This document shows, piece after piece, positions 18,125-27,343 of a DNA stretch of 43,726 bases. The stretch is from an uncultured Synergistales bacterium. Lineage in GTDB: Bacteria > Synergistota > Synergistia > Synergistales > Aminobacteriaceae. The notes beneath the pieces were generated by a model. That model made no database searches and was not told the DNA's origin. It saw only the letters and a list, made by a program, of their open reading frames with translations. The position numbers and the translations under genes were made by a program. The number at the start of each line of letters is the position of its first letter. Position 1 is the first letter of the stretch. Location: the NCBI GenBank assembly GCA_937897575.1, contig CALCQG010000102.1, forward strand, positions 1 to 43,726. The letters run 5' to 3'.

Positions 18125-19462
18125 TCAGAACTTGGTCTTTTTCAGAACCCACCACGGCGCCATGCTGGAGTCCAGGTGCCCTCGTCCCGTCATCTCCCAC
18201 ATGATGGCGAAGGCGGACCACAACCGTGTGAAGAACGCGAAAACAGGCATGAGGGGAAGCAGCGGGATGAGGTGACGGTCCTCCTTCGGACGTTCCGAGA
18301 GGAAGAAGAGCGTGATGAAGAAGAAGAACACCTCCACGGCGAGGTAGAAGACGTAGACGATGAGGAAAATGGCCGCTACGACACGAAGGGGGGCGACGAC
18401 GAAGAGGAGCAGGGTGTAGAAGAACAGAAGGATCGGCGTGATGATCTGAAAGAAAAGGCCGCCTACGAGCATCACGATGAGATTGAGCCATCCGATGAGA
18501 TGGACGGCGAAGGATCGGAAGTGCTTGACGAAATAGAGGAAGAAGAGGTCCCCGTCCCATCGAAGCCGCTGTTTGAAGAAGCCCTTGAAGGTGTCCGGCG
18601 CGTCCGTATGGCCCATAACCTCGGGGTCGAAGATGATGCGCATCTTCTTCTCCCTGTTGAAATAATTCTTCACCCGTATGGTGAGGTCCAGGTCCTCCGC
18701 CGTTCCGCTGTCCCAGCCTCCTATGAGCTCCAGGGTCGTTCTCCTGAATATTCCGAAGGCCCCCGAGATGTTGTTCACGGCGTTGAACTCGCTCAGCCCC
18801 GTCTTGCTTGCCATGATGGAGACGAGGTATTCAACGGCCTGCAGGGCCGCTGCAAGAGAGACTCTCCAGTTCCTGACCCGAAGGCACCCCGAGACGCACG
18901 CCACGTTGGGGTCGACGAAATGCCGGGTCGCCTTGTCCACCATGTCGTTGTCGAAGGAGGTGTCACCGTCCATGACCATGATGATGTCCCCGGTCGTGAC
19001 GGCGTACCCGGCGTTGAGCGAGGAGACCCTTCCGCCCCTCTGCCGTTTCGGAAGGGGTTTCAGGACTCTGTTGGGGAGGGCGTTGACCCACTCCTCCATG
19101 TCGAGCGCCGCTTCATAGGTGGCCTTGTTCTGCACCGAACCGTCGATGACCGGGATGATCTCCATCTTTCCCGGGTAGATCTGCTCTGCGAGAGAGCGTA
19201 TGGTGAGCTGGATATCCTTTCCCTCGGAATAACAGGTGATGACGCAGGAGACGGAGGGGTAAAAGGGCACCCGTTCGGGGGTCTCCTCTGTTTTTCTGAG
19301 GATGTACTTCATGAGTCCGGCGAGCACCAGGAGATAGTATGGAAGCTCGAGGAAGAGGATGAGCGGAACGAACTTGAAGAGGACCACCCACATTTCGGAG
19401 GAGAAAGGGTCGCTGAGCAGCCCTCTCATGCTCCGGATCAAGAAGGTCATCCAGTCCCCCAT
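18125..19462 (-). CDS. Processive GT2 polysaccharide synthase (PgaC/IcaA/HasA-like)
   Basis: N-terminal TM; ITCYSE, IDGS, MDGD (DxD), SGAFGIFRR, AEDLDLT, QRLRW; C-terminal TM helices; no PilZ domain. Confidence 0.9.
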   Translation of the reverse strand: MGDWMTFLIRSMRGLLSDPFSSEMWVVLFKFVPLILFLELPYYLLVLAGLMKYILRKTEETPERVPFYPSVSCVITCYSEGKDIQLTIRSLAEQIYPGKMEIIPVIDGSVQNKATYEAALDMEEWVNALPNRVLKPLPKRQRGGRVSSLNAGYAVTTGDIIMVMDGDTSFDNDMVDKATRHFVDPNVACVSGCLRVRNWRVSLAAALQAVEYLVSIMASKTGLSEFNAVNNISGAFGIFRRTTLELIGGWDSGTAEDLDLTIRVKNYFNREKKMRIIFDPEVMGHTDAPDTFKGFFKQRLRWDGDLFFLYFVKHFRSFAVHLIGWLNLIVMLVGGLFFQIITPILLFFYTLLLFVVAPLRVVAAIFLIVYVFYLAVEVFFFFITLFFLSERPKEDRHLIPLLPLMPVFAFFTRLWSAFAIMWEMTGRGHLDSSMAPWWVLKKTKF

Positions 19463-19467
19463 GATCG

Positions 19468-20820
19468 TTATTCTCCCTGCATGCGCTCCAGAAGCAGCTC
19501 CGCCGTCTCGCCCCGTCTCAGATCGTCCGGGAACCCCGCGAGTTTCACCGCGATGTCGAGCACGGTGCCGTCGGGCTGACGAGTGAACTCCCGGAGGTCC
19601 CGTATCCTCGATGCAACGATGCCGGCGCCTGTCTTCGGTGTTTTCGGAAGCAGCAGGACAAGGTTATGTCTCGAGGTCCTGGTGCTGATGTCCGTGGACC
19701 GGATCAGCTCCTTCAGCCGTTTCGCGAGAGCGTCGAAAAGTTGCAGGCTCTTGTGGCGTCCCATGGTGGCGCTGAGCTCGTCGAGGTTGGGAAAGGAGAC
19801 CACGAGCAGACCGAACGGGTCCACGGGCGGGCGCTGGGCCAGTCGAAGCATCCAGTCGAGGATATAGTTGAAGGGCTCGGGCTTCATGTAGTTCAGCGTG
19901 TCGAGGAGCATGTACATCTCCTCGGTGACGCCGCTTCGCACCGCCATAAATCCTTTGTCGGAAAGAGCGTACTCCCTGAACGACCGGGGCACGAGCTCCT
20001 CCGGCGTGCTGCGCTTTCCGCAGAGAAGGCAGTAACAGGCTATCTTCGGCTCGTTGAAGGTGTGGGAGCAATCCCTGCACTCGTAATTCTCCAGCGGGCG
20101 ATCGTAGTCCGACCCGATGTGGCGCAGTTTCGTATGGCAGAAGGGGCACTGCAGCCCCGAGTCGGTGAGGAACTTCTCCTGGGGCGCCACTCTCCCGCAG
20201 GTGAAGCAGTGAATGAATGGGACCTGGTGAATATCGATGCTGTCACAGGAGGGGCAGGTCTCCACATAATTGATGTGGGCACCGTCGCACTTGGGACATC
20301 TCCGAATCCTGTCCACGAGAACCCCTTCAGTGAGGTATCCTTTTTCGAAAAGATCCTGGATCCATCGGTCGCTGTCCAGCTCCTGCATCGAGAGCGCCTC
20401 GGCAAGAGGGTAGGAATACAGCCCGGGAGAGTATGGATCGAGATGGGGTCGCAGCGTTTTGTTCTTCCTCGAAAAGAGAAAGGCGAGCAGCCGGAAATCC
20501 AGGTTCCGACGGATCAGATTCTGGTCAATTTCCCCGAGGCGCTCCAGAATGCTCTCGGCCGTCTGCTCCATCTCCGATTCGGAGGATGAGGGTGCGTCGA
20601 CCAGTTCGATCTCGCCGGCCGCAGGTTCGCCGTCCAGAAAGAGAGGCAGGAGCGCTGTATCGTTTCTCCCTCTGATGGCTTCTATTCTCTCGGCGCGCTT
20701 CTTCCCCGCGGATAGGATGAAGCCTGCGGGAAGAGGCTCTCCCTCGGCGGGAAGCACGCTGTCATCGTCGAGACGGAGGAGCCGGATCGCGGCGCGGGCG
20801 TTTAGTTCTTCTCCATGCAT
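19468..20820 (-). CDS. Multi-zinc-ribbon (TackOD1-like) protein with C-terminal degenerate GGDEF domain
   Basis: Six CxxC (CPKC, CPSC, CFTC, CPFC, CRDC, CLLC); C-terminal IRSTDISTRTSRHNLVLLLP aligns to RxxD-xxxR-xGGDEF-xxLLP; SD GGGAGG. Confidence 0.8.
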   Translation of the reverse strand: MHGEELNARAAIRLLRLDDDSVLPAEGEPLPAGFILSAGKKRAERIEAIRGRNDTALLPLFLDGEPAAGEIELVDAPSSSESEMEQTAESILERLGEIDQNLIRRNLDFRLLAFLFSRKNKTLRPHLDPYSPGLYSYPLAEALSMQELDSDRWIQDLFEKGYLTEGVLVDRIRRCPKCDGAHINYVETCPSCDSIDIHQVPFIHCFTCGRVAPQEKFLTDSGLQCPFCHTKLRHIGSDYDRPLENYECRDCSHTFNEPKIACYCLLCGKRSTPEELVPRSFREYALSDKGFMAVRSGVTEEMYMLLDTLNYMKPEPFNYILDWMLRLAQRPPVDPFGLLVVSFPNLDELSATMGRHKSLQLFDALAKRLKELIRSTDISTRTSRHNLVLLLPKTPKTGAGIVASRIRDLREFTRQPDGTVLDIAVKLAGFPDDLRRGETAELLLERMQGE

Positions 20821-20836: not shown

Positions 20837-21958
20837 CTATTCGTGCTCGAACAAGGAGAGACTCTGACGGATGGAGAAGCCGAAATGAACCGACAGAGGC
20901 AACCCCTCCACGCGGAGGGCATCGGGCAACGGTTCGTCGAAGGCGACTTTGACGAGCAGCATCTGTTTGCCTTCGTCGAGGACGCCGGACAGCTCCGCCG
21001 GAATGCGCACCGCGAGCTCGGGCGCGGAGCTCACCCTCCCCTCCATGGAGGAACCATCAGAGAAACGGACTGTGACCGGCTTCCCTGGCTGCGCATACCC
21101 CAGGTGTCTGGGCTGAAGATACGCCACGACCTGGACGGACTGCGGGCGCCCCAGGAGGACGAGCGGCGCACCGGAAGGAAGGATCTCGCCCTCGGACGGG
21201 AAGATATCCAGCACACGCGCGTTCTCAGGGCTTCGGATCGTGAGCTGGATGCTCCGGGTATCCAACAGCTTCAATTCGGCTTCGATCTGATGGATCCGGT
21301 TCTTTCTCTGGGCCTCCGATTCCAGCTCGTAGTAGGAGGGCCCCTGGGCCACAGGCTGAGGGACGGGCGACGCCGATTCCCTGAGGCTCACCAGAGTGAG
21401 TTCGGCCTGCCGATGCCGGTCCTCGGCCTCGTTGAGTTCCGCGCGGGTCGCGGCCCCCTGTTTAAAGAGGGACCGCACGGTCTCCCGATAGGCCCTCTGG
21501 TACTCCGTGTTCTGCTGTGCAAGGCGAAGCCGGTCCTTCGACACGGAGGCAACCGGAGCGGGTGCCTGAGGCGTCTGGGCGGCGGGAACCCCTTCCCGAA
21601 GCCCCTCCATCTCCGCCGAGAGAAGGATCTTTCGCTGCTCCAGCGCCGGATCATCGAGCCGGAGCAGGATATCGCCCGATACCACCGATGCGCCGAGCTG
21701 CACCTCGATGCGGGCGACCGTCGCGGGGAGCGGGGCGTTCACGCTGACCTTTTCGAGGGAGATGACGCCCGGGGCGGTCACGAAGAAGACAGCCGATGCG
21801 ACCCTCCAGATGAGGAACAGCAAGGGCGTCGAAAGGAGCAGGACCAGAAGACGCCACTTCCACTTCGGGATCGCTCGTTTCGCCGGAGCGTACGGAATCT
21901 TCATGCCCCCTTCGCGATCGGGGTTTTCTTGTTGGGATGGGGAAAAATTGACTTTCAT
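20837..21958 (-). CDS. HlyD-like membrane fusion (periplasmic adaptor) protein
   Basis: N-terminal TM; lipoyl halves VNAPLPATVARIEVQLGASVVSGDILLRL and IRSPENARVLDIFPSEGE around a helical hairpin containing GAATRAELNEAE; ATGA overlap with the upstream gene. Confidence 0.85.
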   Translation of the reverse strand: MKVNFSPSQQENPDREGGMKIPYAPAKRAIPKWKWRLLVLLLSTPLLFLIWRVASAVFFVTAPGVISLEKVSVNAPLPATVARIEVQLGASVVSGDILLRLDDPALEQRKILLSAEMEGLREGVPAAQTPQAPAPVASVSKDRLRLAQQNTEYQRAYRETVRSLFKQGAATRAELNEAEDRHRQAELTLVSLRESASPVPQPVAQGPSYYELESEAQRKNRIHQIEAELKLLDTRSIQLTIRSPENARVLDIFPSEGEILPSGAPLVLLGRPQSVQVVAYLQPRHLGYAQPGKPVTVRFSDGSSMEGRVSSAPELAVRIPAELSGVLDEGKQMLLVKVAFDEPLPDALRVEGLPLSVHFGFSIRQSLSLFEHE

Positions 21959-24126
21959 CGGGCCATCTCCCTGTAATCCTCCCAGGCCTGGACGACAACG
22001 CCCGAAAAGACCGGCGAGGAAAGTTGGTGTTGGATCGTTTGTATGATGTCACGCACGCGGCGCGTCCCGCGGGAGAAGAAACTCTCCGAGGGCGGCAGCG
22101 TTTTTTCCACTGAGATCGCGAGGGAGAGGTGCAGAGCGGGCCACTGTCTCCCGATGGCCTTCATCCTCCGAATGACGGCCTCGACATTCGTCGAGTACAC
22201 CATGACCGTCACCTCGCTGACCTTTGCTCGGGCGAACCCCTTGGCCGCAATAGGTCCGAGCTCGCCTTCGAGGTAGCGGGGGTGGACGGAGAGCCCCAGC
22301 GGCCACGGAGCGATCGCCGATACGGCCTGTACCGTGTCGATGAGGCTCTCCAGAAGCTCCTTCCTTCGGGTTGCCGATCCGGCTAATTGGTCCGGCTCGA
22401 GGTCGAGATGAAGGCCGGAAAAATTCAGGGATTTGAGGTCGGAGACGAGGAGGAGAAGCTCCTTTCGATGCTCGGCGAGAATCCACGAGGGGTCCCCGAG
22501 GAGCAGCTCCACAGACAGCCCGCTCGCCTTTGCCGCGGAGAGCGTTTTATCGAGTCGCTCCCTGACGGCCGTGTCTCTCAGTCTCGCTATGCCCTTGCCG
22601 GTGAATGAGACCAGCGCTCTGGAAAAACCGGCGTCCCGAACCGTTCGAAGGGTGCGATCGGCCCCGTCGGAAAGAAGCGTGTCGCCGCTCCAGAGATAGA
22701 GGCCTGGCCGGATGTCCCGGGCAGTGCTGCCCGCTGGCCCGCCAGTGTCTTTATCCAGAGCGATCCACGAGGGAGACAGTGCTTCGCCGTCCTCCGGGAA
22801 CGACGAGGATATGAGCCGGTCCGCCGTTTCATAGCCTGTCCGAAGCATCGGGATGGCTCCCAAAAGTTCAGCGTGGGTCTGGAGAATCATTCCTTCGCTC
22901 TCGATGAGGTCCATGGACGCGGAGAAGTAGTTGAAAATATCGCGAAAGAGCTGTTCGAGAGTATCACCAGGGAGGGATGCATGTCGGAGACGCCCCTCCC
23001 GAACGCCCTCGGCCGCCGATCTCAGACGGACGAAGGAGAACTCCCTCTGGGATATTCCGTAGTCGTAGCGCGCGAGGCCCTCCGTTATATCCGAGAGAAG
23101 ATCCCTTTGCCGAATCTCCCTCTCCTGACGGCTCCGCTCGATGCTGGCGCGCGACGCTCTGCCCGCGGCGGCGGCCGCTTTCGCTTCCCCCCATGGAACG
23201 TCAAAACCGAGGGTTATGAATACGTTCGAACCGTCACCGCCGGGAAACTCCCTGTAGAATCCCACCCCCGCCCTGAGAAAGGCTTCGTACTGCGATCTCG
23301 GAGCATGGCGGGCGATCTCCTCCTTCTTGTCGATCGTCCGATCGAGGAAGGACAGTTCGTCACCAGCCTCTTCGCGGACGTATCGAGAGAGCAGCTCGTT
23401 GGAATAGGCGACGTCGGGAAGATGCGGAGTCTCCGTCGTGAACCTTTGCAGGCTGCCCCGCCCCGTGGCCTTTCGGACGACGCGCATGGCCTCCTCGGAC
23501 GTAAGGGCCGACGAGGACAACGTACGCCGCGCATAGGAGAACCAGCTCTCCATCTCGAGGCGGTCACGTTCGAGCAGAAATCCGCTTTTCGTTCTCGCTT
23601 CGAGCAGGGGAAGAAGCTGCGGCTCGAGGCGGAGAAAGCGTTCGAGAAAGGCCTGTTTCCGCTGGTTTGTCCAGAGGAGGATATAGGCCTTCCTGAGTGC
23701 GATGAGATTGGCCTTCTTGAGCACGGAGAGCCGCCTCTGTTCTTCCAGAGTACGAACAGCCGCTTCGAGCTCCTTGATGCGCTCCTTCCTCCACGTCCCG
23801 AACAGCGGGATCTGAATCCCCGCCTGAAGGGAGAGTTCGGAGTACCACTCATCGTCCGTGTCGTTTCTGTGTACGAGCGGCTCCCTGTTCCCCGAAAGAG
23901 AGACGTTGGCGAACCACCTGGGGCCGTTTTCCGCCCTCTGGCGCTCTTCGAGAGCGGTGCTCTCCGCCACGGAAGCGGCAGCCTCCAGCACTTCCGGAGA
24001 GCAGGTCACCTCCTGCTCCAATACGGCAAGAGGGATAACGTCCGCTGCGCAAACCGAGACCGCGAAAACTGCCAGCAGCGCCATGCATACGACCATCACC
24101 GGAAGGATCGCCCCGGCTCGTTTCAT
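21955..24126 (-). CDS. TolC-like outer membrane factor fused to a C-terminal glycoside-hydrolase-like TIM barrel
   Basis: Signal peptide; OEP-like segments (SPEVLEAAA, LQAGIQIPLFG, LRKAYILL, FITLGFDVPW); after a linker, LYLWSGD...VELLLGDPSW...FSGLHLDLEP...VTVMVY...GVVVQAW. Confidence 0.75.
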   Translation of the reverse strand: MKRAGAILPVMVVCMALLAVFAVSVCAADVIPLAVLEQEVTCSPEVLEAAASVAESTALEERQRAENGPRWFANVSLSGNREPLVHRNDTDDEWYSELSLQAGIQIPLFGTWRKERIKELEAAVRTLEEQRRLSVLKKANLIALRKAYILLWTNQRKQAFLERFLRLEPQLLPLLEARTKSGFLLERDRLEMESWFSYARRTLSSSALTSEEAMRVVRKATGRGSLQRFTTETPHLPDVAYSNELLSRYVREEAGDELSFLDRTIDKKEEIARHAPRSQYEAFLRAGVGFYREFPGGDGSNVFITLGFDVPWGEAKAAAAAGRASRASIERSRQEREIRQRDLLSDITEGLARYDYGISQREFSFVRLRSAAEGVREGRLRHASLPGDTLEQLFRDIFNYFSASMDLIESEGMILQTHAELLGAIPMLRTGYETADRLISSSFPEDGEALSPSWIALDKDTGGPAGSTARDIRPGLYLWSGDTLLSDGADRTLRTVRDAGFSRALVSFTGKGIARLRDTAVRERLDKTLSAAKASGLSVELLLGDPSWILAEHRKELLLLVSDLKSLNFSGLHLDLEPDQLAGSATRRKELLESLIDTVQAVSAIAPWPLGLSVHPRYLEGELGPIAAKGFARAKVSEVTVMVYSTNVEAVIRRMKAIGRQWPALHLSLAISVEKTLPPSESFFSRGTRRVRDIIQTIQHQLSSPVFSGVVVQAWEDYREMAR

Positions 24127-24721: not shown

Positions 24722-25717
24722 TCAACCGTCCTCCCTCGCGAGGTCGGCGAGCCCCTCCTCCAGAGATACTCGAGGCACAAAACCAAGGACTCTCTCCGCT
24801 TTCGAGATGTCCGCAGCGCTATGGAGGACATCCCCAAGTCTTTTCGGAGCAAAGAGAGGGTTTGTCTCTTCGCCGCGCTGTCCTGTGACGGAACGTATCA
24901 CATCATACAGATCGAGCAGACCAACGGGGGATCCCGATGAAATGTTGAACACCTGTCCGAAGGCGTCCTTGCGCTCCGTCGTGCCGGCGAGAATATTCGC
25001 CTCCACCACGTTGCGAACGTGGCAGAAACCTCTGGTGTTCGAGCCGTCGCCGTACACGGTCCCCGGGCGTCCTTTTTTGAGGGAGTTCATCCACGCCGCC
25101 ACGACCGCCGCATAGGCCCCCTTGGGGTCCTGCCTCGGGCCGAAGATGTTGAAATAACGAAGGCCGACCGTCGGAACTCCGTAGGACTGCCAGTACAGGG
25201 CACCCCATAATTCGTTGTCCCGCTTCGACAGTCCGTAGGGGGAGATGGGAGCCACCGGGGATTCCTCCGTCTTCGGCAACCCCGGAAGGTCGCCGTATAC
25301 GGCGCTGGATGAGGCGTACACCACACGGCTTCCCTCGGCCCTGGCGGCATCGAGAATATTGATGAACCCTTTGGAGTTCACATCAAAGGTGAGCGTGGGG
25401 TGTTCCACCGAAAACGGGACCGAGACGACCGCCGCATGATGCAGGACCGCAGATGCCCCCCTGCATGCTTTTCTGCATACCTCCGGGGATTGAATGTCGC
25501 CTTCGACGAAGGTGAACCGTCTTTGCTGCTCCGGCCGGATCTTTGCCAGGACCTTTTCGAGGTTCTCCCTGTGTCCTGTCGAGAAGTTATCCACTCCGAC
25601 GACATCCTGGTCGAGGGACAACAACCCCTCGACGAGATTCGACCCGATAAAGCCGGCGGCTCCTGTCACTGTCCATCTGGTTTGTTTCAGGGAGACACTC
25701 CGATCAAAAGACCCCAT
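24722..25717 (-). CDS. Extended-SDR NAD-dependent epimerase, WbpP/TviC-like (probable UDP-GlcNAc C4-epimerase)
   Basis: TGAAGFIGSNL, DNFSTG, YASSSAVYGD, SPYGLSK (YxxxK), LRYFNIFGPRQDPKGAYAAV; SD GAGGAGG. Confidence 0.85.
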   Translation of the reverse strand: MGSFDRSVSLKQTRWTVTGAAGFIGSNLVEGLLSLDQDVVGVDNFSTGHRENLEKVLAKIRPEQQRRFTFVEGDIQSPEVCRKACRGASAVLHHAAVVSVPFSVEHPTLTFDVNSKGFINILDAARAEGSRVVYASSSAVYGDLPGLPKTEESPVAPISPYGLSKRDNELWGALYWQSYGVPTVGLRYFNIFGPRQDPKGAYAAVVAAWMNSLKKGRPGTVYGDGSNTRGFCHVRNVVEANILAGTTERKDAFGQVFNISSGSPVGLLDLYDVIRSVTGQRGEETNPLFAPKRLGDVLHSAADISKAERVLGFVPRVSLEEGLADLAREDG

Positions 25718-25782: not shown

Positions 25783-27153
25783 TCACGGTGCGGTTTTCTT
25801 CAGTCGTTCTTCGGCGTCGCTCCCCTTCACCAAGGGGTTCTTCGCCGCGAGCGCGGCGGCCGATTCTCCCGCCCCGTTCTTCGCCTTCGGGTCGGCCCCG
25901 GCCTCCAGCAGCGCAAGAACCGATGACGCCGTCCCCAATTCCGCCGCAGCCAGAAGAGGTGTGTTGCCCCTCTTGTCCTTCGCCTCGACGTCGGCCTCCC
26001 TGTCCAGCAGGGAGGCGATGAGGACCGCCCCGCCGTCGCTCCGGGCCGCCGCGTGGTGCAGCGCCGTCTGCCCCGACGCATCCCGGGTGTTCACGTCGGC
26101 CTTTGCCTTGGCAAGATCCCGGACGGTCCATGGATTCCTGCGCACCCTCGCGGCCTTCATGAGCGCCGTCTCGCCCGCCTTGTCCTGCAGGTTCACGTCG
26201 GCGCCCGAGTCGAAGAGCCTGCGGACGACGTCGTTGTTTTCATTATAGGCCACGGCGAGCATCAGGGCCGTCCGGCCCTCGCCGTCCTTCCCGTCCAGCG
26301 CGGCCCCGGCGTTGACGAGAAGGGAGATGACGTCCGGGTTCGGGTTGAAACGGGCGGCCACCATGAGGGGGCCGCCCGCCTGCGGCAGGGAACCGTTCAC
26401 GGGCAGGCCCTTTTCAAGAAAGAGGGCCGCCACGTCGAGGCTCGGGTTATGCTGCAGGGCAAGGGCGAAGGCCGCCGCCCACCCGTCCTTGTCCTCCTCC
26501 ATGAAGAGCGCCACCACCTCGGGATTCGGATTGCCGCGGGCGGCCAGCATCAGAGGCGTCTCGCCCGCCTTGTTCTTGCCACGGCCCTCTCCCAGTGCCA
26601 GCAGAAGGCGTGCTCCGTCGCCCACGGGGTTTCGGGCGGCGTACAGGAGCGCGCTGTTGCCCGACGCGTCGTGCGCTCCGGGGTCCGCTCCGCCGTCGAG
26701 GAGGACCTCCAGCACGCGGCTGTCACCGTTATACGCCGCGGCGTACATGAGCGGCGTGGCACCCGAGGTGTCCCGCCCGTTCGGGTCCGATCCTCCATCG
26801 ATGAGGGCCGCAGCGATGTCGGCGTTGAAGTTCCGGGCCGCCGCCATCATGAGCGCCGTTCGGCCATCGGGCAGGGCCAGGGCGGCGTCGGCCCCCCACT
26901 CCAGGAGGGTCGAGACGACGGTGGGGTCCACGGAGGAAAGAGCGGCGATCATCAGAGGAGTCCGCCCCGAATCGTCCCGTGCCTGCACATCGCCTCCGGC
27001 CCTGAGGGCGGCGAGGACCTCGTCGGCGGTCCCTCCGGCGCAGGCCCGGTGCAGCGCCCCGCCTCCGGGAGACAGGGCCGTACCCGTCGCCGGAAGAAGC
27101 GCCATGAGCACCGCCACCCCGATTCCCAACATATTTTTGCGTCTCCATCCCAT
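25783..27153 (-). CDS. Secreted ankyrin-repeat protein
   Basis: SD AAGGAGG; MGWRRKNMLGIGVAVLMALLPATGTA signal peptide; about 12 repeats such as GRTPLMIAA, GATPLMYAA, GETALMKAA. Confidence 0.9.
   Translation of the reverse strand: MGWRRKNMLGIGVAVLMALLPATGTALSPGGGALHRACAGGTADEVLAALRAGGDVQARDDSGRTPLMIAALSSVDPTVVSTLLEWGADAALALPDGRTALMMAAARNFNADIAAALIDGGSDPNGRDTSGATPLMYAAAYNGDSRVLEVLLDGGADPGAHDASGNSALLYAARNPVGDGARLLLALGEGRGKNKAGETPLMLAARGNPNPEVVALFMEEDKDGWAAAFALALQHNPSLDVAALFLEKGLPVNGSLPQAGGPLMVAARFNPNPDVISLLVNAGAALDGKDGEGRTALMLAVAYNENNDVVRRLFDSGADVNLQDKAGETALMKAARVRRNPWTVRDLAKAKADVNTRDASGQTALHHAAARSDGGAVLIASLLDREADVEAKDKRGNTPLLAAAELGTASSVLALLEAGADPKAKNGAGESAAALAAKNPLVKGSDAEERLKKTAP
25821..25905. 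repeat. 85-bp direct repeat, copy 2 (inside the ankyrin gene 3' end)
   Basis: 83/85 identical to 17876-17960. Confidence 0.95.
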
Positions 27154-27343
27154 GACAACGCCTCCTTGGTGGCCTCGGACAGCACGGCACAACGATGAAC
27201 CGACAGGAGAAACAGGACACCTCTCACGCCGCAGAAACGGGAGGACATAGCCAAAATGCCCTCCCGTCCCTATCTGGACCGCGCCCACCCGGGAGCACGG
27301 GTTTATCGCTGTCGCTCGTTCTCAGGCCTCCGGTCCGTCGTTT

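Follow-up and report, generated by a model that had tools for sequence, protein, structure and literature searches.

The window analysed here is a whole contig of 43,726 nucleotides (CALCQG010000102.1, assembly GCA_937897575.1) from an uncultured Synergistales bacterium, and its minus strand carries a gene for a 723-aa protein in which a TolC-family outer-membrane channel subunit is joined to a C-terminal (β/α)8 barrel, probably a glycoside hydrolase, beside genes for a sugar polymerase, a periplasmic adaptor and a putative regulator. The initial annotation of this DNA, made from the letters alone, had placed the motifs FSGLHLDLEP and VTVMVY in the last ~250 aa of a 723-aa open reading frame (ORF), and both are encoded there. 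The gene is laid out as follows.

21955..24126, minus strand: fusion gene of 723 aa, TolC-family outer-membrane factor plus C-terminal (β/α)8 barrel (ORF, Pfam, AlphaFold2, Foldseek).
24046..24126, minus strand: signal peptide, residues 1-27, assigned by inspection (basic start, hydrophobic run, V-C-A before A-D).
22855..24045, minus strand: outer-membrane factor protomer, residues ~28-424 (Pfam OEP, AlphaFold2, Foldseek).
22705..22854, minus strand: linker, residues ~425-474 (low AlphaFold2 confidence; length and sequence vary among homologues).
21958..22704, minus strand: (β/α)8 barrel, residues ~475-723 (AlphaFold2, profile comparison, conservation).
22393..22422, minus strand: strand-4 signature FSGLHLDLEP, aligning on D-G-x-D-x-D-x-E of glycoside hydrolase family GH18 and on D-G-x-H-x-D of family GHL10.
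22195..22212, minus strand: strand-6 motif VTVMVY (M642, Y644), aligning on GH18 M-x-Y.

That the protein consists of two joined parts, a channel protomer and a barrel, is confirmed. Contigs from a different study are letter-identical to the window wherever they overlap with it, and one contig from a different study bridges the junction from channel to linker (22683-23882). The stop of the fusion gene shares four bases with the start of the adaptor gene. In the 751 bases upstream there is no Rfam match at E<=1, a scan for promoters and terminators returned nothing informative, and no RNA dataset holding the locus is found among the sequencing runs listed.

The channel half belongs to the OEP/TolC family and forms a complete protomer. 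Pfam OEP (PF02321) matches residues 51-204 in two stretches (E 3.7e-10, 40.4 bits against a cut-off of 22), and an AlphaFold2 model of the whole protein, computed from an alignment of 49 homologues (predicted local distance difference test score, pLDDT, 90.2; predicted TM score, pTM, 0.60) shows two repeats with four strands arranged in two pairs (70-83, 92-108, 281-294 and 298-309) and helices of up to 71 residues. Foldseek aligns this half with TolC, ST50 of Salmonella, OprJ, CusC and OprM (E 2e-14 to 1e-12, target TM 0.61-0.80), which bears out the earlier expectation that the N-terminal part would model as a TolC-type protomer. The helix at residues 4-23 of the model is consistent with a signal-peptide-like N-terminus. 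Residues 460-469 of the linker fall below pLDDT 50 and the barrel comes after them; the geometry between the two domains is only loosely constrained, as the pTM of 0.60 and the low-confidence linker indicate.

The fusion gene is the first of four tightly packed genes, all on the minus strand, and the operon of synthase type that the initial annotation had proposed is indeed present, with the following three genes adjoining it (Pfam, NCBIfam, tblastn).

20837..21958, minus strand: HlyD-family periplasmic adaptor (membrane fusion protein), 373 aa (Pfam HlyD_3 5.8e-10, 40.3 bits, above cut-off).
19468..20820, minus strand: TackOD1 zinc-ribbon plus degenerate GGDEF protein, likely ATG start at 20820 (450 aa), the ORF being open to 20922 (484 aa).
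18125..19462, minus strand: processive family-2 glycosyltransferase (GT2), 445 aa, with DGD, TAED and QRLRW motifs.

Matches of the adaptor to HlyD_D23 and Biotin_lipoyl_2 lie below the cut-offs, and its best NCBIfam model, EmrA/EmrK, lies far below its own (50.8 bits). A motif-guided scan for the barrel over one genome per species gave 66 loci, which were searched with the window proteins by tblastn. Barrel, adaptor, TackOD1 protein and GT2 occur together at 44 of these, a further nine are partial and fall on short contigs or contig ends, and 13 are without cassette genes, comprising 12 distant stand-alone forms (Acidobacteriota, Eremiobacterota, Actinomycetota and Neobacillus) and one 1.1-kb contig. 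The cassette is spread across at least eight phyla, its hosts belonging to the Synergistota, Desulfobacterota, Alpha-, Beta- and Gammaproteobacteria, Planctomycetota, Binatia, Bacteroidota and Myxococcota. The window and five Synergistota loci have the gene order channel-adaptor-regulator-synthase; the other 39 loci, which come from other phyla, have regulator-synthase-channel-adaptor. Clustering of the flanking ORFs yielded no family present in at least five of 39 sources as a fifth conserved neighbour, with the limit that greedy ORF calling picks shadow ORFs in GC-rich DNA, so that small or overlapped genes could be missed; as no neighbour recurs, the cassette looks self-contained. Neither a fusion of channel and hydrolase nor a study of this cassette was found in the open literature searched (subscription journals and supplements excluded).

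Fusion is the dominant form of the family. Against 1.84 billion cluster representatives, the barrel profile finds 3855 at E<=1e-3, 2344 at E<=1e-10 and 341 at E<=1e-30. We sorted 209 collected homologous proteins with two home-made hidden Markov models, and 167 hold the full channel part together with the barrel, 17 have a partial channel part, being mostly fragments at contig ends, and 25 consist of the barrel only. Within the 53 loci that hold all or part of the cassette, channel and barrel share one frame in 41, lie in different frames in two and have a stop between them in two; in the remaining eight the channel is too divergent or truncated for the tblastn query, and six of these are still single ORFs of 697-954 aa. 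The different frames at L008 and L025, and the stop at L010, may reflect assembly errors or decay. Whether homologues are split into two genes, a question raised at the outset, can be answered with yes for some. One Desulfobacterales locus (L012, 6324-8771) carries the full cassette with a channel ORF that stops and the barrel as a separate ORF of 311 aa that begins with a signal-peptide-like segment of its own, and ~11 barrel-only close relatives begin with a clear signal peptide or lipobox and are therefore true stand-alone exported proteins. Distant stand-alone members (L057-L066 from Acidobacteriota, and L054, L062 and L067) have 276-428 aa and signal peptides, and the Acidobacteriota consensus reads R-F-D-G-I-H-L-D-L-E-P-Q-Q; a scan of 67 ORFs at seven distant stand-alone loci found nothing informative in common. 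Two variants stand apart: P0146 (957 aa) has an OmpA-family peptidoglycan-binding domain after the barrel (residues 771-873, E 1e-16), giving the order channel, barrel, OmpA, and P0149 (598 aa), a stand-alone protein with a signal peptide, matches the barrel profile in two stretches over residues 34-598 and may hold two tandem barrels.

Tether and split forms together bear on the idea that the barrel has some other role than cutting or binding, for example as a transglycosylase that remodels the chain, or as a plug or gate controlling when the channel opens. GH18-type enzymes are able to transglycosylate, and the loose inter-domain geometry of the model leaves room for such a role. Nothing specific speaks in its favour, and a long flexible linker together with viable split forms argues against a fixed plug, so that we regard this as a very improbable explanation.

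Modelled alone with AlphaFold2 (C-terminal 266 aa, 49-sequence alignment), the barrel is compact, at ~250 aa without an insertion domain, and has eight strands alternating with helices (pLDDT 95.5, pTM 0.91); the predicted TIM barrel of eight β/α units is thus upheld. Its affiliation is less direct. Residues 458-723 have no Pfam match even at E<=10, none of 37 aligned barrel members has one at that threshold (PF00704 and PF02638 included), and PF00704 finds no match in the window's own genome, which is 96% complete. A search of PDB sequences with the single barrel sequence gave nothing meaningful (best E 0.14). With the barrel profile, the same set of sequences returned 14 matches at E<=10, namely one full-length homologue, ten GH18 chitinases and three unrelated proteins. 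In the chitinases (E 0.033-1.3), FDGLHLDLE falls on the chitinase FDGLDIDLE. The homologue, with a length of 275 aa, is PDB 10yv, entitled 'Putative GH97 from Cellulomonas fimi'; it is matched with E 2.7e-14 over profile positions 2-249 of 252 and is the sole solved protein that matches the whole barrel by profile. It keeps the D-x-E-P-W region and differs in being a stand-alone protein from a Gram-positive organism with Gln in place of His; it is not among the Foldseek or VIA matches listed, and no paper on it was found in the literature searched.

Comparison of alignments with hhalign, using 24 Bacillales domains for GH18 and four sequences for GHL10, places the barrel near both families. 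With GH18 the score is 95.7% (E 1e-8) over 116 columns from strand 3 to strand 6, H-L-D-L-E falling on x-x-D-x-E and M-x-Y on the invariant M-x-Y (MTY); with GHL10 it is 90.6% over strands 2-4, with G-x-H-x-D in common. For calibration, GH18 against GHL10 gives 90.8%, and the negative controls give 1.0% for GHL13, the family of the PgaB C-terminal domain, and 3.1% for the GH114/PelA type, so that neither shows a profile relation to the barrel. The relation by profile to GH18 and GHL10, and not to GHL13 or GH114, puts the barrel in the GH18/GHL10 neighbourhood and not merely among TIM barrels in general. Membership of either family is rejected, because the barrel stays below the model thresholds and lacks the full motifs: for GH18 there is no PF00704 match (cut-off 29.6 bits), an invariant His replaces the middle Asp and no Asp follows M-x-Y, and for GHL10 there is no PF02638 match and the D-Y of D-G-x-H-x-D-D-Y is replaced by L-E. 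Judged by its sequence, the barrel is a separate, unnamed family, distantly related to GH18 and GHL10, to which PDB 10yv also belongs by its whole-domain profile match and strand-4 signature. The description of the barrel as GH18-like therefore needs qualification: GH18 is among its nearest named relatives by profile, with the motifs in register, whereas PF00704 does not match and GHL10 is about equally close. Relative to GH18 chitinases (PF00704), it shares the (β/α)8 barrel, D575 and E577 on D-x-E and the strand-6 M-x-Y, and differs in its compactness, in having no insertion domain and in its fusion to an outer-membrane channel.

Structural comparison adds less. VIA ranks Cwp19 first (Z 17.7), followed by the GH18 entries 6k7z (Z 17.6), 4wiw (Z 17.3) and 3ebv (Z 16.6), with the GH18 cortex-lytic enzyme SleL at Z 15.8 and the PgaB barrel as a middling match at Z 15.4. 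The list is flat, running from Z 17.7 to 15.3 across 50 entries that include GH5, GH1, GH84, GH20 and PgaB, so that the fold alone decides neither family nor substrate. Foldseek, suggested earlier as a check on the barrel, did return TIM-barrel glycosidases, but only generic ones (query TM 0.43-0.63), and in the ESM Atlas GH18 is the nearest named cluster (0.88), which is a lead only.

The first rank of Cwp19 raises the alternative that the barrel is a peptidoglycan enzyme or anchor, which would open or fix the wall mesh round the duct and leave the exported polymer untouched. Cwp19 of Clostridioides difficile (PDB 5oq2; VIA rmsd 3.9 over 237 aligned residues) belongs to GHL10, shares the His and Asp of the motif, and is called a lytic transglycosylase in the title of PMC6016235; peptidoglycan lysis is also discussed in PMC5765458. 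The cortex-lytic SleL in the same list and the one variant with an OmpA domain directly after the barrel point in the same direction. Cwp19 is a Gram-positive surface protein, and GHL10 has D-D-Y where the window family has D-L-E, with no match past strand 4. Against a wall function, the alignment through D-x-E and M-x-Y is longer and stronger with GH18 than with GHL10, the barrel is tied to the GT2 cassette in 44 of the 66 loci, and neither other tripartite pumps nor the Bgs glucan system considered below is known to need a dedicated wall enzyme. Similarity to GHL10 does not fix the substrate in any case, since another member acts on starch according to the title of PMC9967864. We consider a function at the wall improbable.

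Conservation carries the argument for catalysis. Across 49 fused homologues, the invariant barrel positions are Y477, W479, L543, W548, F569, H573, L574, D575, E577, H615, R617, M642, Y644, S672 and E674. Adding distant stand-alone forms (37 sequences) leaves W479, L542, F569 and H573-L-D-L-E577 invariant, the H-L-D-L-E signature being present in all 37, and M642, Y644 and E674 at least 90% conserved. In strand 4 the window reads S-G-L-H-L-D-L-E, with D, S or A in the first position among homologues, and the GH18 signature D-x-x-D-x-D-x-E is retained in part, with the last Asp and the Glu invariant and the middle Asp represented by the invariant His. VTVMVY echoes the GH18 MxYD as far as M642 and Y644, which fall on M-x-Y, and no further, as the following Asp is absent. 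The Y-x-W of GH18 strand 1 has a spacing unlike that of the barrel family. In the model, strands 1 and 3-7 have the invariant residues at their C-terminal ends or just past them, on the face where barrels of this kind normally bind substrate and catalyse. The combination of Asp-x-Glu and Tyr suggests that an N-acetylated sugar polymer is cleaved with retention, possibly with assistance from the substrate, and what speaks most for catalysis over mere binding is that both carboxylates are kept across phyla.

Mere binding would mean that the barrel is a non-catalytic, lectin-like module that holds, guides or senses the nascent polymer without cutting it. The structural matches that rank highest do include several catalytically inactive GH18-like proteins (xylanase-inhibitor proteins, concanavalin B, tamarind lectin and imaginal disc growth factor), and the His in place of the GH18 middle Asp, with the Asp after M-x-Y missing, fits such a module. 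Against this, inactive GH18 lectins usually lack the Glu, whereas neither D575 nor E577 varies across at least eight phyla or in stand-alone forms, and the invariant residues gather at the catalytic face. A lectin-like barrel is, in our view, unlikely.

The polymer itself would be made by the GT2, which matches Glyco_tranf_2_3, Glyco_trans_2_3 and Chitin_synth_2 in Pfam. Among solved proteins it is related to a membrane GT2 (6yv7, E 1e-9) and more remotely to hyaluronan synthase (E 1e-4). Upstream of the operon, at a distance of 595 bases, lies a further gene of interest for the nature of the sugar.

24722..25717, minus strand: NAD-dependent sugar-nucleotide 4-epimerase, best match of TviC/WbpP type (285 bits, below cut-off).

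The sugar is read as an N-acetylhexosamine because the best matches of the synthase are PgaC/IcaA and NodC and because of this TviC/WbpP-type epimerase.

The TackOD1 protein has its TackOD1 domain (Pfam, E 3.5e-69) followed by a partial GGDEF domain. No solved relative was found by PDB sequence search, and TackOD1 is mentioned in a single paper of the open literature searched. An R-x-[TS]-D stands five residues before the degenerate GGDEF position in 19 of the 20 homologues aligned; the window protein keeps R-x-x-D in register and reads SRHNL at the GGDEF position. We take the five-residue spacing of R-x-x-D to be that of the I-site. Retention of R-x-[TS]-D by a dead GGDEF domain suggests a receptor for cyclic di-GMP (c-di-GMP), and the protein is thus a possible candidate for a receptor of the PelD or MxdA kind. 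Its gene is also present in the cultured bacteria Pseudomonas mandelii, P. lini, P. frederiksbergensis, Vreelandella utahensis and Thermanaerovibrio velox.

Judged from its gene content, the operon is a putative tripartite synthase-dependent exporter of the Bgs/Xcs/Mxd type, in which the barrel-fused channel is the new element. The cyanobacterial Xcs cellulose system combines a GT2 synthase, an HlyD-type adaptor and a TolC-type channel into a proposed tripartite exporter controlled by c-di-GMP. In Sinorhizobium meliloti, BgsA/BgsB/TolC is presented in PMC13438883 as a mixed-linkage β-glucan system and proposed tripartite exporter under c-di-GMP control, likewise with GT2 synthase, HlyD-type adaptor and TolC-type channel. 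As that source describes it, the Bgs system borrows the housekeeping TolC and is without a hydrolase, and c-di-GMP binds the synthase itself, whereas in the window the operon encodes a dedicated channel with a barrel fused to it, and a separate TackOD1/dead-GGDEF protein is the candidate receptor. The four-gene biofilm operon MxdABCD of Shewanella oneidensis is comparable by description only, three of its roles matching three of the four window genes: MxdA is described as a c-di-GMP-binding effector, MxdB as a GT2 and MxdC as efflux-pump- or adaptor-like (PMC3691769, PMC7666153, PMC11395469). MxdD is described there as without known homology, and no fusion of TolC and barrel is reported in the available text of these papers. 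Shewanella is not represented among the 90 relatives of the TackOD1 protein listed, nor among the 66 loci of the motif scan; as the search for TackOD1 relatives used a word prefilter, its absence does not show that MxdA is unrelated.

We propose a model in which the 723-aa protein is a TolC-family protomer that carries, on a flexible linker of ~50 residues, a barrel placed in the periplasm and likely acting as a glycoside hydrolase on the polymer of the GT2, a reading to which we assign a probability of roughly 0.55. In this model the inner-membrane GT2, which is of the processive type by its motifs, would polymerise a sugar nucleotide, presumably that of an N-acetylhexosamine, once switched on by the TackOD1/dead-GGDEF protein, possibly through c-di-GMP bound at R-x-x-D. 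By analogy with BgsA/BgsB/TolC, the HlyD-type adaptor and the TolC-like trimer would then form a duct to the outside, and each trimer would bear three barrels hanging from the C-terminal end of the channel on flexible tethers. The barrels may cut polymer that strays into the periplasm, or they may trim or release chains, with E577 as the acid, helped by D575, H573 and Y644, as the alignment with the substrate-assisted GH18 enzymes would predict. The function suggested in the initial annotation is plausible on this view, and its structural part is largely right. The C-terminal end of TolC lies in the periplasm, at the equatorial domain, and a periplasmic location of the barrel is in keeping with its position after the last channel helix in the model, with the signal peptide of its own in the split Desulfobacterales form, with the signal peptides or lipoboxes of the ~11 close stand-alone forms and with the OmpA domain of P0146. 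Fold, fusion, conservation, gene linkage and distant homology are thus observed, and location, activity, substrate and role are inferred from them.

Several observations weigh against this model. A sealed duct of adaptor and channel would keep a barrel on its outside from meeting the exported chain, which is a real difficulty. The His in place of the GH18 middle Asp and the lack of an Asp after M-x-Y mean that GH18-type chemistry may not apply, and the Gln of PDB 10yv shows that the His itself is replaced in a relative. The structural list is flat, and the fold alone points to no particular substrate. Regarding the polymer, the scores of the GT2 for PgaC_IcaA (130 bits) and NodC (74 bits) are far below the cut-offs of 422 and 550, and homologues of the epimerase stand beside the cassette in four of the 66 loci only. 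Finally, the distant stand-alone members of the barrel family occur in unrelated neighbourhoods, including those of the Gram-positive Neobacillus and of an actinomycete.

The model bears on a wider question. Synthase-dependent systems, such as those for cellulose, alginate, Pel and poly-N-acetylglucosamine (PNAG), are central to biofilms, and in each the synthase is accompanied by an enzyme that cuts the polymer in the periplasm; what precisely these enzymes do is still debated. BcsZ, AlgL, PelA and the PgaB C-terminal domain are periplasmic hydrolases or lyases thought to trim or clear polymer, and the barrel resembles them in its proposed role, as a periplasmic enzyme encoded with the synthase. 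They differ in being separate proteins or lipoproteins and not part of the channel. A candidate enzyme covalently attached to the exit channel has its position and stoichiometry fixed, so that the barrel on its channel is well suited to finding out how such enzymes function. We tentatively extend this to an exit duct, which would be the first of its kind, with a built-in enzyme of a new glycoside hydrolase family (signature H-L-D-x-E, sister to GH18 and GHL10), tethered in three copies and proof-reading or cutting an N-acetylhexosamine exopolysaccharide, the whole forming a self-contained four-gene biofilm module found in at least eight phyla; for this fuller proposal we would put the chances a little short of even. 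No characterised member of the barrel family was found in the literature searched, and once an activity is assigned to the barrel, a new hydrolase family beside GH18 would be established. These questions are directly testable, since the cassette occurs in cultured, tractable bacteria; the whole of it is present in Caldimonas caldifontis and Nitratidesulfovibrio liaohensis.

Two further observations concern the genes upstream of the operon. Weaker homologues of the epimerase occur at L026, L036 and L042 (Betaproteobacteria or Novosphingobium) and at L022, a metagenome-assembled genome of the Gammaproteobacteria, and it may be in this genome alone that the epimerase belongs to the locus. Adjoining the epimerase gene is one more on the same strand, the product of which has a hydrophobic N-terminal segment and ankyrin matches at the level of the repeats only.

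25783-27288, minus strand: ankyrin-repeat protein, 501 aa.

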